A stretch of DNA of 5,968 nt from a virus (IMGVR_UViG_2778261214_000006); one strand, 5' to 3'; positions 465 through 5,968 are shown, numbered from the stretch's first letter. Numbers and translations are program-made. The notes: generated from the letters alone by a model not told the origin.

Positions 465-821
465 ATGGACGAATCAAGAAAGCAGTTTGAGGAATACGTT
501 GCCAAAAAATTGAGATTACCATTCGAGATGATAACCGAGGCAAGAAATGGTGATAGGTACTTCGCATTTTCAAGCATGGATATTCGTCACTCCTTAAATG
601 AGTGGTGGACTTTATGGCAGGCATCGCGAGCAGCTATTGAACTGGATATCGACTGGCCAGAATCGAATGACGACTTTTGGAAAGATGGTGAAGAAGGTGC
701 TTATGCGATGGGTTATGAGGATGGGCGTGACAAAACGGTAATTGCAGTAATGAAAGCTATCAGAGCCGCTGGAATTAAAGAGAAGAATTTCGATGAAGCA
801 AACAATATTCCTCCGAACTAA
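465..821 (+). CDS. Hypothetical acidic phage protein (118 aa), family not recognised
   Basis: ATG at 465 is preceded by GAGGG (451-455) at 9-nt spacing. The ORF has a 29-nt overlap with the ninB start. The protein is net acidic, rich in D/E and W, with no transmembrane segment. Confidence 0.6.
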   Translation: MDESRKQFEEYVAKKLRLPFEMITEARNGDRYFAFSSMDIRHSLNEWWTLWQASRAAIELDIDWPESNDDFWKDGEEGAYAMGYEDGRDKTVIAVMKAIRAAGIKEKNFDEANNIPPN

Positions 822-1203
822 GCAACAACAGCAAGCCGCAATCAACGCCATCCTCGCAACACCACTCGATAAAGACAAGCCAGTCACCATCCGCATTACT
901 GACTACAAGCGCAACCTTGACCAGAACGCAAAATTTCACGCGATGCTGGCGGATATCGCACGTCAGGTTCAATGGTGCGATAAGTGGTTAAAACCAGAAC
1001 AATGGAAGGTTTTGTTGATTAGCGGTCATGCAGTGGCAACAAAGCAGGAAGCTGATGTTTTGCCCGGCCTTGAAGGCGAATACGTCAACATTCGCGAAAG
1101 TAGCGCGCAGATGAGTGTGAAGCGTATGGCAAGTCTGATTGAGTACACGACAGCATGGGCTATTGGTCAGGGCGTCAGATTTACCGACAGGAGGTACGAA
1201 TGA
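793..1203 (+). CDS. ninB: NinB/Orf-family recombination protein
   Basis: 136-aa ORF with the N-terminal pattern [20 protein letters not shown] and the ...[20 protein letters not shown]... region resembling lambda NinB (Orf) as I recall it. It sits directly upstream of ninE, as in lambda. Confidence 0.8.
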
Positions 1204-1376
1204 GACGACAGCGACGAAGTATCACCGACATAATCTGTGAAAACTGCAAATACCTTCCAACGAAACGCTCCAGAAATAAACGCAAGCCAATCCCAAAAGA
1301 ATCTGACGTAAAAACCTTCAACTACACGGCTCACCTGTGGGATATCCGGTGGCTAAGACATCGTGCGAGGAAATGA
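1200..1376 (+). CDS. ninE: NinE protein
   Basis: ATG at 1200 overlaps the ninB stop (ATGA) and is preceded by AGGAGG (1189-1194) at 5-nt spacing. The product [58 protein letters not shown] is basic, 58 aa, and matches my recollection of lambda NinE. The ORF-track start at 1155 lies inside ninB and is rejected. Confidence 0.8.
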
Positions 1377-1780: not shown

Positions 1781-1949
1781 CCCATCCCAATCCCTTCAAT
1801 ACCAGAAAGAAAGCGTCGAGCGAGCTTTAACGTGCGCTAACTGCGGTCAGAAGCTGCATGTGCTGGAAGTTCACGTGTGTGAGTACTGCTGCGCAGAACT
1901 GATGAGCGATCCGAATAGCTCAATGTACGAGGAAGAAGACGATGAATGA
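1773..1949 (+). CDS. ninF: NinF protein (small Cys-rich, likely zinc-binding)
   Basis: ATG 1773 with GGTGA 5 nt upstream; 8-nt overlap with the preceding ORF's stop. The product [58 protein letters not shown] (58 aa) has a CxxC...CxxCC motif and an acidic tail, and matches my recollection of lambda NinF almost residue for residue. Confidence 0.7.
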   Translation: MLSPSQSLQYQKESVERALTCANCGQKLHVLEVHVCEYCCAELMSDPNSSMYEEEDDE

Positions 1950-2664
1950 GTTAATAAATGGCAATGCCATCAAAATGACAAGCATTGAAATAGCTGAGTT
2001 GGTGGGTAAGCGTCATGACAATGTGAAACGTACCATCGAAACGCTGGCTAAAAATGGTGTTATCCGGCTTCCTCAAATTGAGGTTTCCGAAAGAATCAAT
2101 AACTTAGGGTTCAATGTTCAGTACGAGCATTACGTCTTCGAGGGCGAACAAGGTAAGCGAGACAGTATTGTCGTTGTTGCCCAGTTGTCGCCAGAGTTCA
2201 CCGCTCGTCTTGTTGACCGTTGGCGAGAGCTTGAAGAAACTGCGGTTAATATCCCCAAAACGTTACCGGAAGCGTTGCGCCTTGCTGCTGATCTTGCTGA
2301 GCAGAAAATGCAACTGGAAAACCAGCTCGCAATTGCCGCACCTAAAGTTGAGTTTGCCGATCGCGTTGGCGAGGCCAGCGGAATTTTGATTGGAAACTTT
2401 GCAAAGGTTGTTGGTATTGGTCCAAACAAACTGTTTGCGTGGATGCGCGATCACAAAATCCTTATTGCTTCAGGTTCCCGGCGCAATGTGCCAATGCAGG
2501 AATATATGGATCGCGGCTATTTCACAGTGAAAGAAACAGCGGTCAACACAAATCACGGAATACAGATATCGTTCACCACAAAAATCACCGGGCGTGGTCA
2601 ACAGTGGCTGACCAGAAAGCTGCTCGATAACGGAATGCTGAAAGTAACAGGGGAGGCTGCTTAA
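1942..2664 (+). CDS. Phage antirepressor / regulatory protein, Rha-like N-terminal domain plus ANT (KilA-C) C-terminal domain
   Basis: 240-aa ORF; ATG 1942 with GAGGA at 8-nt spacing. The N-terminus (...MTSIEIAELVGKRHDNVKRTIETL...) is typical of Rha-family phage regulators. The C-terminal half (APKVEFADRV...LFAWMRDHKIL...MQEYMDRGYF) is typical of the antirepressor ANT/KilA-C domain. Confidence 0.75.
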   Translation: MNELINGNAIKMTSIEIAELVGKRHDNVKRTIETLAKNGVIRLPQIEVSERINNLGFNVQYEHYVFEGEQGKRDSIVVVAQLSPEFTARLVDRWRELEETAVNIPKTLPEALRLAADLAEQKMQLENQLAIAAPKVEFADRVGEASGILIGNFAKVVGIGPNKLFAWMRDHKILIASGSRRNVPMQEYMDRGYFTVKETAVNTNHGIQISFTTKITGRGQQWLTRKLLDNGMLKVTGEAA

Positions 2665-2954
2665 TGGCTAACCTACGCAAAGAATCTCGCGGCAGAGAAT
2701 GCCAGGTACGTATTTACGGCATATGCAATGGCAATCCTGAAACTACAGTTCTGGCACATTACCGGATGGCTGGAATTTGCGGAACGGGAATGAAGCCTGA
2801 CGACCTGATCGGCGCATGGGCTTGTAGCGCGTGTCACGATGAAATCGACCGACGCACCCATAACCTCGACAACAAAGACGCCAGACTTTACCACCTCGAA
2901 GGCGTGATCAGGACGCAGGCGATACTGCTGAAGGAGGGGAAGATTAAGTCATGA
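2664..2954 (+). CDS. ybcO: YbcO-like (DUF1364-type) putative metal-binding nuclease
   Basis: 96-aa ORF; TAATG overlap with the upstream stop and GGGAGG at 7-nt spacing. The product MANLRKESRGRECQVRIYGICNGNPETTVLAH...CSACHDEIDRR... has the conserved Cys/His pattern of DLP12 YbcO as I recall it, and lies immediately upstream of rusA as in DLP12/82-type nin regions. Confidence 0.75.
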   Translation: MANLRKESRGRECQVRIYGICNGNPETTVLAHYRMAGICGTGMKPDDLIGAWACSACHDEIDRRTHNLDNKDARLYHLEGVIRTQAILLKEGKIKS

Positions 2955-3313
2955 ACGAATATCAGTTTGTGCTTCCATACCCGCCGTCGGTGAATACCTA
3001 CTGGCGAAGACGGGGAAGCCAATACTACATCAGCGATAAAGGCCAGAAATACCGAAAAGACGTTCAGCAAATCATCCACCAACTCAAGTTAGATATTTTC
3101 ACCAAATCACGACTCCGCATCAAAGTAATCGCAGACGTTCCAGACTCCCGCCGCCGCGACCTAGATAACATCCTGAAGGGTTTACTCGACTCCCTTATCC
3201 ATGCCGGATTTGCGGAAGACGACGAGCAATTCGATGACATTCGCGTAATTCGTGGTGTGAAAGTACCAGGCGGACGGCTTGGAATAAAAATCACCGAACT
3301 GGAGAACGCATGA
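2951..3313 (+). CDS. rusA: Holliday junction resolvase RusA (crossover junction endodeoxyribonuclease)
   Basis: 120-aa ORF; ATGA overlap with the ybcO-like stop. The N-terminal LPYPPSVNTYWRRRG, the central DVPDSRRRDLDNILKGLLDSL (catalytic Asp cluster region) and the C-terminal GGRLGIKITELENA are characteristic of RusA. Confidence 0.9.
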   Translation: MNEYQFVLPYPPSVNTYWRRRGSQYYISDKGQKYRKDVQQIIHQLKLDIFTKSRLRIKVIADVPDSRRRDLDNILKGLLDSLIHAGFAEDDEQFDDIRVIRGVKVPGGRLGIKITELENA

Positions 3314-3498
3314 ACGCCACAATTCAAACGATACCAGAGCTTCTTATCCAGACACGAGGCAATCAGACCGAAGTGGCGAGGATGCTTTCCTGCGCAAGAG
3401 GAACAGTGCTCAAGTACAACCGAGACAGCAAAGGCGAGCGTCATGTAATAGTTAACGGCGTCCTGATGGTCAAACAGGGCAAGAGGGGAAGACGATGA
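3310..3498 (+). CDS. ninH: NinH-like small DNA-binding protein
   Basis: 62-aa ORF; ATGA overlap with the rusA stop and GGAG at 5-nt spacing. The core ...GNQTEVARMLSCARGTVLKY...VIVNGVLMV resembles lambda NinH (...GNQTEVARRLKCSRGTVRKY...AIVNDVLMV) as I recall it. Confidence 0.7.
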   Translation: MNATIQTIPELLIQTRGNQTEVARMLSCARGTVLKYNRDSKGERHVIVNGVLMVKQGKRGRR

Positions 3499-3584
3499 GA
3501 CTCGAAAGCGTAGCTAAATTTCATTCGCCAAAAAGCCCGATGATGAGCGACTCACTACTGGCCACAGTTTATTGGTTTTCGTAA
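3495..3584 (+). pseudogene. Q: Truncated N-terminal remnant of a lambda-type Q antiterminator gene
   Basis: ATG 3495 overlaps the ninH stop (ATGA). The first ~20 codons (MRLESVAKFHSPKSPMMSDS) match my recollection of the lambda Q N-terminus. The frame then diverges (LLATVYWFS) and stops at 3582-3584, so about 90% of the gene, including the zinc finger, is absent. Confidence 0.5.
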
Positions 3585-3626
3585 CTGAGTCATTTTATTA
3601 TTTTATTGCAACTTTTAATCTTTTAT

Positions 3627-3676
3627 AGTGCGAAATAAATGGAGCTGGCATTCATTTCGCACTTTATGTTTTTGTT
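3627..3676 (+). terminator. Inverted repeat with downstream T-rich tract; candidate terminator at the early-operon/accessory-gene junction
   Basis: 10-bp inverted repeat AGTGCGAAAT (3627-3636) / ATTTCGCACT (3654-3663) with a 17-nt loop, followed on the + strand by TTATGTTTTTGTT. The loop is long for a canonical intrinsic terminator, so this is a weaker call than the other two. Confidence 0.35.
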
Positions 3677-3709
3677 GGACTTATGTTATTTTGATTGAAT
3701 TCAATTCAG

Positions 3710-4669
3710 TTAAAAAAAGAAGGTGATTGCTCCATTTATAAATGAATAGTCATCCCCTGTCTTGAATTCTGATGTTACTTTATTAAATGCTAGTGTGAAG
3801 GCTACAGGTGCATACCCAATTGTTGCGCCAACTTGATATTCATCAACAGTTTTGTTTAGCGATACTGTTGTTTGTTTCGTCTGTATTGTTTTTCCTTCGA
3901 GAGTATAGTTGCGATTGACATCTCGTCTTTCCATACCTGCAAAAATCTTGTATTTGAATCCGCTTGTATCGGACATATGCATTAAACCACGGGGAGCCAG
4001 CAGACCAAAGCCATTATCCGAATTGAAGGTTTTATCATTACCAATGGCAATGGTTGCGCCATATGCTACATATTGAAATAAGTTTCCAGTAACAGCAGAA
4101 ACTTCAGGGTATAATCCAACATTAGCACCTAAAATATCCATACTTGGTGTCATGGATAGCATCCCTTTTACAGTATAACCGTAGCGATTCTCTATTTGAT
4201 CATCCCATGCATGATATTTTTCTGCCCCAATAATCTCATGAGCTTTATTTTGTACTTTCTGACCGCCTGCGTCGGGGCCAACAACACCTATGTCAGTACC
4301 TAATCGATAGCGAATCCAGTCATTCGCAAGGGAGTTCCATTCAATACCAGTGTGAGTGTATGCACTAAAAGCTCTGTCTCCAGTTACAGCTGTGTTGTGT
4401 CTTTTATTACTGCCTGATGGAGAGTAAATATCTTGCGCAATATGGAGAGATAATTGGCTCGAGTCTGAGATATCGTGGCTATATCCCAGAAATAAGCCTT
4501 GTGAGTAATCATCTCTGTTTTCATGTTTATTGCCATAAATATCATTAAGTATTGGTTGAAACTTCCCTGCATCATCATTTGCTAATGATAATGCAAGGCT
4601 GTTCGCGATAGCTGAACACGTGGTAAATGACAGAGCAATAAAGACGCCAGCGATGACACTTTTTTTCAT
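3710..4669 (-). CDS. lpxR: Outer-membrane beta-barrel protein, LpxR-like lipid A 3'-O-deacylase (accessory/moron gene)
   Basis: 319-aa ORF on the minus strand. The N-terminal Sec signal MKKSVIAGVFIALSFTTCSAIA ends in an AxA cleavage motif, and the C-terminus ...NGAITFFF is the aromatic terminal signature of outer-membrane beta-barrels. The predicted mature N-terminus NSLALSLANDD places Asn-Asp at positions 9-10, matching my recollection of the LpxR catalytic N-terminus. SD AGGAAG lies 10 nt upstream of the ATG. The gene and flanks are visibly more AT-rich than the nin genes. Confidence 0.7.
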   Translation of the reverse strand: MKKSVIAGVFIALSFTTCSAIANSLALSLANDDAGKFQPILNDIYGNKHENRDDYSQGLFLGYSHDISDSSQLSLHIAQDIYSPSGSNKRHNTAVTGDRAFSAYTHTGIEWNSLANDWIRYRLGTDIGVVGPDAGGQKVQNKAHEIIGAEKYHAWDDQIENRYGYTVKGMLSMTPSMDILGANVGLYPEVSAVTGNLFQYVAYGATIAIGNDKTFNSDNGFGLLAPRGLMHMSDTSGFKYKIFAGMERRDVNRNYTLEGKTIQTKQTTVSLNKTVDEYQVGATIGYAPVAFTLAFNKVTSEFKTGDDYSFINGAITFFF

Positions 4670-5144
4670 ATGTTATTGTCTTCCTTTTTTTTGAATGGTG
4701 CGCGTATTTTACATACATGAGTTTGTAATACAAGGTGCGTAATCAATATGATGTTTTATAATTGCGTGAGACAATTGATTTATTCGTTTTTTATTGCGGT
4801 TTTTATTATCTTTTAATGTAACGGTGTTTTTATTAAGTGTGTTTGTGTGGTGTTTTATGTTTTTTATAATTTTTATTTTATTAAATTTAAAAGCATTAGT
4901 AATGGCTATTCTATATAGCAATATAAGAACTGTTACAAAAAAAGGGGGGGCAATTACAGGTAGTTATGGATGATGAGTGAAACAGATATTGGAGAACCGG
5001 GGAATGAATGATGTCTGAGTCTTATATATCAGAACTCCTTCGCTGTCGCTGGGGGCTCCTGTGCTTATGTCGTTTCCCCGATTCGGTTTTGAACGATTAC
5101 CGAATGTTGAAGAATTATGCCAAAATATAGAAAGGATTTACTGC
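4670..5144. promoter_or_regulatory. AT-rich divergent intergenic region: expected lpxR promoter/5' leader and upstream region of the replacement Q
   Basis: Roughly 475 bp without a convincing ORF; 4690-4930 is extremely AT-rich with many T-runs. It must contain the promoter for the minus-strand gene that starts at 4669. No individual -35/-10 pair could be assigned confidently by eye. Confidence 0.4.
4937..4950. repeat. Abutting homopolymer tracts A7 then G7
   Basis: AAAAAAAGGGGGGG read directly at 4937-4950 in the intergenic region. A T8 tract also lies at 4685-4692, just upstream of the lpxR-like SD on the minus strand. Confidence 0.5.
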
Positions 5145-5834
5145 ATGAATACCCAATATTTACAGTATGTTCGTGAGCAACTTATGGCAGCTACTGCTGA
5201 CTTGAACGGAGCAACGAAAGGCCAGCTCGAAGCCTGGCAGGAGCATGCACAATTTGATACTGGTACATACAAACGAAAGAAGCCGCGCATTCTGGATGTG
5301 GTAACTGGCAAGATGATTACGCTGGATAATACGCCGACTTCCGGTAAGCAGTCGTACGCAAAAGGTTCATCCATTGCTTTGGTCAGCCCGGTTGAATTCT
5401 CAACCTCTTCATGGCGCCGCGCGGTTTTGTCTCTCGATGAACATCAGAAAGCATGGTTGCTTTGGTGTTACAGCGAAAGCGTTCGATGGGGGCATCAGGT
5501 CACCATAACGCAATGGGCATGGAGCGAGTTTAAAGATTTGTTAAGTAACAGAAAAATTGCAGGTAAGACACTGGATCGCCTGAAGACGTTAATCTGGCTG
5601 GCTGCACAGGATGTGAAGAGCGAACTTGCAGGGCGTGAGGCCTATGAATACCAGACACTGGCATCATTGGTGGGAGTGACAACAAAAAACTGGTCCGAGA
5701 CATTTACTGAACGCTGGGTTGCAATGAAGCACATTTTTCTACAGCTTGATAGTGATGCTTTATTGCTTGTGACGAGAACACGTTCAAAACAAAAGGCAGC
5801 ATTTTTACAGCAAAATATTGCAAAACTGGATTAA
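5145..5834 (+). CDS. Late-gene antitermination protein Q of the non-lambda (QuuQ/82-like) family
   Basis: 229-aa ORF from ATG 5145, with AAAGGA 8 nt upstream. The ORF track extends to GTG 5061, but that start lacks an SD. The product (MNTQYLQYVREQL...EFSTSSWRRAVLSL...WLLWCY...TQWAWSEF...LQQNIAKLD) resembles Qin-prophage QuuQ-type Q proteins as I recall them and lacks the Cys4 zinc finger of lambda Q. A strong promoter and terminator lie immediately downstream, as expected for Q. Confidence 0.65.
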   Translation: MNTQYLQYVREQLMAATADLNGATKGQLEAWQEHAQFDTGTYKRKKPRILDVVTGKMITLDNTPTSGKQSYAKGSSIALVSPVEFSTSSWRRAVLSLDEHQKAWLLWCYSESVRWGHQVTITQWAWSEFKDLLSNRKIAGKTLDRLKTLIWLAAQDVKSELAGREAYEYQTLASLVGVTTKNWSETFTERWVAMKHIFLQLDSDALLLVTRTRSKQKAAFLQQNIAKLD

Positions 5835-5846
5835 AAGCCATATACT
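5818..5846 (+). promoter_or_regulatory. pR'-like late promoter (sigma70)
   Basis: TTGCAA (5818-5823), a 17-nt spacer, then TATACT (5841-5846): a near-consensus -35/-10 pair overlapping the last codons of Q. The predicted start site is near 5853. Confidence 0.55.
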
Positions 5847-5857
5847 TCATGCAAATT

Positions 5858-5866
5858 TGGTATGTT
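5858..5866 (+). promoter_or_regulatory. Extended -10-like element in the initially transcribed region (candidate sigma-dependent pause / Q-engagement site)
   Basis: TGgTATGTT at 5858-5866, i.e. TGn followed by a -10-like hexamer at about +9 to +14 of the predicted pR' transcript. In lambdoid late promoters such elements hold sigma70 to create the pause at which Q loads. Confidence 0.35.
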
Positions 5867-5882
5867 GTAAAAAATGTATAAA

Positions 5883-5906
5883 CCCGCTGCCGAGTGGGTT
5901 TTTTTT
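5883..5906 (+). terminator. Rho-independent terminator (tR'-like), about 30-50 nt downstream of the predicted pR' start
   Basis: Stem CCCGCT (5883-5888) / AGTGGG (5893-5898, with one G-U pair) around a GCCG tetraloop, followed by T8 (5899-5906). Confidence 0.6.
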
Positions 5907-5968
5907 ATGCCCTGAGTTGTACTTGTACGGTAAACATGCTGGCTGCTATGTAATAGAGTTTTTTTAGC

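Follow-up and report, generated by a model that had tools for sequence, protein, structure and literature searches.

An antisense lpxR gene between two antiterminator modules: very probably a lysogenic-conversion gene of a lambdoid prophage of attaching-effacing Escherichia coli

The DNA analysed here, called the window in the following, is the whole 5,968-nt viral stretch IMGVR_UViG_2778261214_000006, and all coordinates are counted from its first letter. Within it lies a minus-strand open reading frame (ORF) of 319 amino acids, which an earlier inspection made without database searches, referred to below as the sequence-only reading, had described as an LpxR-like lipid A deacylase gene carried as phage cargo; the ORF list gives this frame on the minus strand at 3710..4669, starting with ATG. 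The window gene is the already known and characterised lpxR of pathogenic Escherichia coli prophages and of phage 434. We regard it as very probable that it is a lysogenic-conversion (moron-type) gene residing on a lambdoid prophage of attaching-effacing E. coli. The gene and the parts of its product are the following:

3710..4669, minus strand: lpxR, ATG start, encoding the 319-residue precursor of an outer-membrane lipid A 3'-O-deacylase (assigned by Pfam, 3FID, active site and structural model)
Protein residues 1-22: signal peptide
Protein residues 23-319: mature barrel

The resemblance to LpxR that the sequence-only reading had proposed was borne out by profile search. The protein matches Pfam family PF09982 with 137.4 bits against a cut-off of 26 (E 6.8e-40), residues 10-318 aligning with profile positions 2-320 of 323 and hence over the full length, and a sequence search of the PDB returned a single match, the LpxR of Salmonella Typhimurium (3FID; E 3.6e-153; residues 24-319; 74% identity over the mature protein). 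The published active-site and Ca2+ residues of LpxR, numbered in the mature protein and the precursor, are Asn 9/31, Asp 10/32, Thr/Ser 34/56, Gln 118/140, His 122/144 and Glu 128/150 (PMC6863877). All six are found in the window protein as N31, D32, S56, Q140, H144 and E150, and the catalytic Asn, Asp and His to which the sequence-only reading had pointed are thus kept. In an alignment of 17 homologues with identities down to 50%, comprising sequences from E. albertii, E. coli variants, Cronobacter, Salmonella, Yersinia enterocolitica and metagenomes, N31, D32, Q140 and H144 are invariant, position 56 is occupied only by Ser or Thr (Thr in Salmonella LpxR) and position 150 only by Glu or Asp. 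The termini of the protein correspond to what had been expected of an exported barrel protein as well. By inspection, a Sec signal peptide with an AxA site is composed of MKK, a hydrophobic core and A20-I21-A22 followed by N23, in which A22 is invariant among the 17 homologues; cleavage after A22 fits both the published 22-residue offset between precursor and mature numbering (N9 = N31) and the alignment with 3FID, which begins at residue 24. At the C-terminus the ...ITFFF β-barrel signature is present and ends with F319, again invariant in the alignment.

The fold was modelled by AlphaFold2 without templates on the basis of the same 17-homologue alignment, and the model was searched against known structures by Foldseek. 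It has 12 main strands, as proposed, and superposes on Salmonella LpxR, the top match being 3FID with template-modelling (TM) scores of 0.84/0.91, an E-value of 1.4e-40 and a root-mean-square deviation of 2.7 Å over 296 columns, while the second match follows far behind (E 3.6e-07, TM 0.47). Of the three outcomes that the sequence-only reading had named as refuting it (no similarity to LpxR, another fold or missing catalytic residues, unchanged lipid A acylation), none was observed; the first two were checked by computation, and the third is answered by the literature on the EHEC gene (see below). Comparison of the window gene with an 85% identical variant linked to the cytolethal distending toxin genes (see below) gives a dN/dS ratio of non-synonymous to synonymous substitution of 0.18 at a dS of 0.48, which indicates that lpxR is under purifying selection.

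The closest relatives of the window gene belong to pathogenic E. coli and to phage 434. LpxR of enterohaemorrhagic E. coli (EHEC), known as Z0955 in EDL933, as 'MC001' and as WP_000750155.1, is 100% identical to the window protein in O157:H7 FRIK944 and O26:H11 11368, and in EHEC of the groups O157, O26, O111, O145 and O103 the 1.43-kb island that contains the gene has 99.4-99.9% DNA identity to the window. The window protein is also 100% identical to CPT_434_65 of phage 434 (OL657226), annotated as 'outer membrane beta-barrel lipid A deacylase'; this complete, viable phage originates from Paris sewage of the late 1950s and has 99.1% DNA identity to the window over the segment from the antiterminator remnant Q' through lpxR and ylcG to Q, with the junctions in the same places. 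In PHROGs the LpxR family is represented by phrog_2309, which matches over the full length (3e-230) and is labelled 'unknown function', and no model of NCBIfam release 20 matches the window LpxR; phage-specific annotation libraries would therefore miss a characterised virulence enzyme.

The gene is embedded in an AT-rich island that is delimited by the following features:

~3570..4998: lpxR-specific AT-rich island of 1429 bp, comprising the gene, its 3' region and a 329-bp upstream region
3495..3584, plus strand: Q' remnant of 29 codons at the left island junction, MRLESVAKFHSPKSPMMSDS+9, the first 20 codons matching the start of HK620 Q
5011..5130, plus strand: ylcG-family small ORF of 39 residues, the first gene right of the island ('YlcG family protein' in RefSeq)
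5145..5834, plus strand: antiterminator Q of the phage 82 type, 229 residues (Pfam Phage_antiter_Q, 1.1e-91)

With a GC content of 0.357, the island stands apart from the DNA on its left (0.469) and on its right (0.444). On the left, the window is identical to HK620, in which ninH is followed by Q, until about position 3555, and homology decays between 3556 and 3570. On the right, homology to phage 82 (rus-orf45-Q) and to the K-12 prophage DLP12 (rusA-ylcG-quuD) sets in from about 4999, at the ribosome-binding site of ylcG. The ylcG-family ORF itself matches phrog_2705 (2e-12) and is homologous to phage 82 orf45 and DLP12 ylcG; the Q gene has 89% DNA identity to phage 82 Q, and its start codon agrees with the RefSeq and phage 434 annotations. 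Relatives without the island keep the respective flanks adjacent, namely ninH-Q in HK620 and rus-ylcG-Q in phage 82 and DLP12. The island is situated at a junction between two different Q modules and is not a clean insertion into one. The left module is represented only by Q', whose ATG overlaps the ninH stop codon (ATGA), suggesting translational coupling of the two. The HK620 Q to whose start Q' is nearly identical is described in its record as similar to lambda Q, and Q' itself is listed in RefSeq as an incomplete antitermination protein, while the phage 434 record has it as an N-terminal piece of Q.

From these island junctions we infer that a lambda-type Q was displaced by a ylcG-Q module of the phage 82 type, with which lpxR came in, and that Q' is the leftover of the former gene. 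The module Q'-lpxR-ylcG-Q82-type Q is constant among the window, O26, O157 and phage 434, and only the left flank varies: rusA-ninH precedes Q' in the window and in O26, whereas ninG and a Ser/Thr phosphatase gene are found upstream in O157:H7 FRIK944 and likewise in phage 434. Recombination in the nin region appears to have reshuffled this left flank later. A shorter, frameshifted piece of Q' lies downstream of the 85% cdt-linked lpxR variant (locus L008, ~5320-5370). Since this variant keeps part of Q', the lpxR-Q' junction predates the divergence of the variants (dS 0.48). Two small sequence features of the island were observed besides. An 8-bp tandem duplication, ATTTTATT twice, occupies 3592-3607 in the island's 3' region, where phage 434 has a single copy; and an A7G7 homopolymer pair is located at 4937-4950, about 270 nt upstream of the lpxR start and near the island's right edge, where phage 434 has G6 instead of G7, a difference that could be sequencing noise or reflect a slippage-prone tract.

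That lpxR is cargo for lysogenic conversion, as had been proposed, agrees with the adjacency of the flanks in island-free relatives, with the foreign composition of the island and with its presence in the viable phage 434; a position between genes that are neighbours in related phages and a distinct base composition are two of the features by which morons are recognised. The proposal that it occupies the classic cargo slot next to Q holds in so far as the island adjoins Q. The slot lies, however, upstream of it, between the dead Q remnant and ylcG-Q82, while the better-known cargo slot is situated downstream of Q, where stx sits. The island was found in 622 of 5426 complete E. coli genomes, almost always as one copy per genome and in 620 of them with at least 99% identity, and the carriers among the matches listed are mostly O157, O26, O111, O145 and O103 strains.

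The genes on the left of the island belong to the nin region of the phage early operon and include the following with Pfam support:

793-1203, plus strand: NinB
1200-1376, plus strand: NinE
NinF, plus strand
1942-2664, plus strand: Rha/KilAC antirepressor
2664-2954, plus strand: YbcO
2951-3313, plus strand: RusA
3310-3498, plus strand: NinH

Every Pfam-supported neighbour of lpxR is on the plus strand, and among those plus-strand genes whose starts are well defined, the stop codon of one and the start codon of the next overlap by 1-8 nt; the sequence-only picture of a single antisense gene that breaks a coupled operon is for this reason correct. The same reading had called lpxR more AT-rich than the nin genes around it, and the gene indeed has a GC content of 0.394 and a third-position GC content (GC3) of 0.303, compared to 0.46-0.52 and 0.46-0.57, respectively, in these neighbours. 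The intergenic flanks of lpxR are lower still, with GC contents of 0.35 and 0.32, and in a sliding window GC dips to about 0.27 immediately upstream of the gene. Two ORFs that a mechanical ORF list places within the 329-bp upstream region, 4709-4921 on the minus and 4794-4973 on the plus strand, were not accepted as genes, their composition being AT-driven and both being unannotated in RefSeq and phage 434. Farther to the left, at 1337-1780 on the plus strand, a conserved phage ORF matching phrog_1511 (2e-86), to which no function is assigned, has its likely true start near residue 15 and a coiled-coil-like C-terminus; it lies between ninE and ninF, where O26:H11 11368 carries an IS3 element that is absent from the window.

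Elements that may serve the expression of lpxR were examined by comparing three diverged E. coli copies of the gene, namely that of the window, the 85% identical cdt-linked variant (L008) and an 80% identical variant on an IncFIB plasmid (L011):

4680..4686, minus strand: Shine-Dalgarno sequence AAGGAAG of lpxR, ending 10 nt before the ATG
4706..4733, minus strand: putative lpxR promoter, TTGTAT (4733-4728), 16-nt spacer, TAAAAT (4711-4706), proposed from conservation
3628..3662, minus strand: hairpin 46 nt past the stop codon of lpxR, with 15 bp on the lpxR strand (fold compared with shuffled controls)
L008, 259-2401 and 4228-5187, and L011, 4001-4960: diverged lpxR variant loci

About 85 nt before the ATG are common to all three copies and contain a TTG...TA(A/G)AAT block and AAGGA(A)G, and the DNA farther upstream is unrelated. 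Phage 434 annotates a ribosome-binding site at the position of the Shine-Dalgarno sequence, which reads AAGGAG in the variants. Downstream of the gene, the stem of the hairpin is conserved in the prophage, cdt-linked and IncFIB copies with a different loop in each. In the window it has a folding energy of -19.1 kcal/mol on the minus strand (z -7.5), compared to -16.0 on the plus strand; in the other two contexts the values for the lpxR strand and the opposite strand are -16.7 and -10.8, and -14.1 and -14.1 kcal/mol. The element is probably a 3' hairpin of the lpxR mRNA, a role that is favoured by the stem folding more strongly on the lpxR strand than on the opposite one in two contexts out of three. 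Alternatively, the hairpin may stop convergent transcription, which in the phage would come from pR, and a U-run on the plus strand fits such a rightward terminator. We did not adopt the explanation that it is purely a pR terminator, in view of this difference in stability between the strands and because the stem accompanies lpxR in loci other than phages as well. A generic scan of positions 3300-5300 found one terminator-like site against 1.5 expected, which is chance level.

Post-transcriptional control is known from Salmonella, where the lpxR mRNA is a target of the small RNA (sRNA) MicF (PMC4651636). When the first 33 nt of K-12 MicF were scanned against the lpxR mRNA from window position 4800 down to 3600, a MicF site was unsupported, yet not excluded: the best duplex reaches -17.1 kcal/mol, 39 of 100 dinucleotide shuffles were equal or better, and the ribosome-binding-site region gives only -7.6 kcal/mol. 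A search of Rfam over the window returned no family above threshold and two weak sub-threshold hits, neither of them within the island.

Taken together with the literature, the sequence is consistent with the following course of events. The precursor would be exported by the Sec pathway and cut after Ala22, and the β-barrel assembly machinery (BAM) would presumably recognise the C-terminal ...ITFFF and insert the protein into the outer membrane, where homology and model predict a 12-stranded barrel. There, N31, D32, S56, Q140, H144 and E150 together with Ca2+ are expected to hydrolyse the 3'-acyloxyacyl ester of lipid A, by which two acyl chains would be lost; the residues are observed in the window protein, and the chemistry is taken from Salmonella LpxR and from reports on EHEC. 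For LpxR in general the activity is stated to depend on Ca2+ (PMC4651636), and 3'-O-deacylase activity is attributed to lpxR of EHEC O157:H7 Sakai (Ogawa et al. 2018, cited in PMC6393859, PMC6863877, PMC7649339). According to the literature, under-acylated lipid A is a poor agonist of TLR4/MD-2 and would thus lead to less inflammation and less phagocytosis. The dampening of TLR4/MD-2 stimulation that the sequence-only reading had anticipated finds its counterpart in this EHEC enzyme, the window protein being identical to that of another O157:H7 strain, FRIK944: loss of lpxR is reported to raise TLR4-dependent NF-kB and p38 signalling (PMC6863877), and lpxR to lower phagocytosis (PMC6393859).

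Regarding its regulation, lpxR is proposed to be expressed from the repressed prophage under host control, outside the lytic programme and together with the genes of the enterocyte effacement locus (LEE), because it points against the pR early operon, lies in AT-rich DNA and has an apparent promoter of its own; that this promoter acts independently is our inference. During lytic growth, N-antiterminated transcription from pR would be expected to interfere with lpxR. The literature on EHEC supports host control. Both Pch and Ler are reported to be needed for activation of lpxR, which is transcribed with the LEE genes (PMC6393859). An independent-component analysis of EHEC transcriptomes assigns it to the LEE modulon (PMC9263587), and it shares its regulation with the LEE, under the name Z0955, in yhaO and yhaJ mutants (PMC4699771) and elsewhere (PMC7649339); its membership of the Ler/LEE modulon applies to non-induced EHEC (PMC9263587, PMC4699771). 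Among isolates from cattle and humans, lpxR and the LEE are strongly associated (PMC6724679). Moreover, 218 of 224 EHEC genomes carry lpxR, and its product is protective as a vaccine antigen (PMC6863877).

Several points weigh against the reading of lpxR as an active conversion gene and have to be set beside this evidence. The reported effect on lipid A concerns the gene of EHEC Sakai and not the window's own strain, and neither of the activators Pch and Ler is encoded within the window. In the membrane of Salmonella, LpxR stays for the most part latent when growth is standard, so that carriage of lpxR alone is no proof of deacylation. The putative promoter has a weak -35 element and is not flagged by a generic promoter scan, in which promoter-like sites between 3300 and 5300 do not exceed chance (5 against 6.8 expected). 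The hairpin is without a U-tract on the lpxR strand, the U-run being found on the opposite strand in all three contexts, and the AlphaFold2 model is moderately confident, with a mean predicted local distance difference test score (pLDDT) of 71 and a predicted TM score (pTM) of 0.69, the other four models having 34-53.

Some of these points could be turned into an explanation of their own, according to which lpxR is intact and functionally silent cargo, shut off by silencing of the H-NS type or by latency in the membrane as in Salmonella, and leaves lipid A unaffected. The low GC content of the island and the dip upstream of the gene would suit such silencing, as would the requirement for two activators that the window does not encode, and expression is conditional in Shiga toxin-producing E. 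coli (STEC), in which adhered cells had 9- to 36-fold less lpxR than planktonic ones (PMC7649339). However, the dN/dS of 0.18 and an identity of 99% or higher in 620 genomes speak for a function that is maintained, and the lpxR mutant of EHEC Sakai has a reported phenotype (PMC6863877). Furthermore, the serogroups that prevail among the carriers listed and the LEE association (PMC6724679) point to backgrounds that carry both Ler and Pch. We therefore consider silent cargo very improbable; it could occur in a host that lacks Ler and Pch.

A further explanation would place the main benefit with the phage, through vesiculation, exclusion of other phages or release at lysis, and not with the virulence of the host. 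It draws on phage 434, a viable sewage isolate that is not pathogen-associated and carries lpxR, and on the effect of PagL, whose deacylation alters vesicle production in Salmonella. The orientation of lpxR speaks against it: the gene runs against the early operon and is no part of the late one, so that it is not timed with lysis. No PADLOC defence model matched the window LpxR, to our knowledge no phage uses the lipid A acyl chains as its receptor, and the published phenotypes concern innate immunity. In our judgement this is very improbable and the least probable of the explanations.

Comparison with related systems places the window gene within a wider family. Salmonella Typhimurium LpxR is equal to it in length, active site and 12-strand barrel, and its gene is chromosomal and outside a prophage, in a region that also has thrS, an endonuclease gene and a DUF481 gene; its upstream region and terminator are unrelated to those of the window, so that neither the promoter block nor the hairpin is common to both. 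Within E. coli, the 85% variant is located 1.8 kb from cdtABC (cytolethal distending toxin) beside a DDE transposase gene, and variants of 79-81% identity reside on conjugative or mobilizable IncF plasmids, several of which match only residues 1-269 and are unannotated. The cdt-linked and plasmid variants share family, length, promoter-proximal block and hairpin stem with the window, and differ in 15-20% of their amino acids and in their neighbours. The bor and lom genes of lambda are, like lpxR, accessory genes for outer-membrane proteins and are expressed from the prophage, and PagL and PagP are, like LpxR, outer-membrane β-barrel enzymes that act on lipid A acyl chains, PagL by removing the 3-O chain and PagP by adding palmitate. 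All four differ from LpxR in family, chemistry or position in the phage genome.

The region following Q has features of its own. A promoter-like sequence, TTGCAA-17-TATACT, spans 5818-5846 on the plus strand around the Q stop codon, and a strong intrinsic terminator at 5880-5901 is followed by a T-run; a sub-threshold Rfam match to STnc240 at 5841-5910, with 28 bits against a gathering score of 55, overlaps this promoter and terminator pair. The segment 5818-5910 is probably the late promoter pR' with a short terminated leader, the substrate of Q82-type antitermination. A Q antitermination gene and an LpxR gene have been found within at most 10 kb of more than 98% of the genes for the sRNAs PasD1 and PasD2 (preprint 10.64898/2026.05.13.724894). 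No PasD sRNA was detected in the window by the Rfam scan, and any copy would for this reason probably lie past the window's right end.

Since the role of LpxR is already established for an identical protein, the window adds no new biology in this respect. LpxR is one of the means by which attaching-effacing E. coli blunt recognition by TLR4 while deploying type III secretion, and it has been put forward as a conserved antigen for vaccines against EHEC (PMC6863877). What the window does add is anatomy: the boundaries of the island, the dead lambda-type Q stub that marks the acquisition of lpxR-Q82, and the promoter-proximal block and 3' hairpin, which accompany lpxR whether it resides in a prophage, near cdt or on a plasmid. 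Phage 434, a viable laboratory phage with the identical cassette, offers a simple system in which transfer and regulation of lpxR can be studied outside a pathogen. No paper in the literature collection searched links phage 434 with a lipid A deacylase. Tentatively, and with more doubt than confidence, we put forward that phage 434 is an unrecognised transmissible lipid A-converting phage and that the island may be an old self-contained unit, an idea prompted by the joint occurrence of promoter block, lpxR and hairpin in three contexts and of part of Q' in two of them. If this is true, K-12 lysogens of phage 434 would make 3'-O-deacylated (tetra-acylated) lipid A once silencing of the AT-rich promoter is relieved, and the unit of promoter block, lpxR and hairpin could have passed between lambdoid phages, elements that carry cdt, and IncF plasmids.

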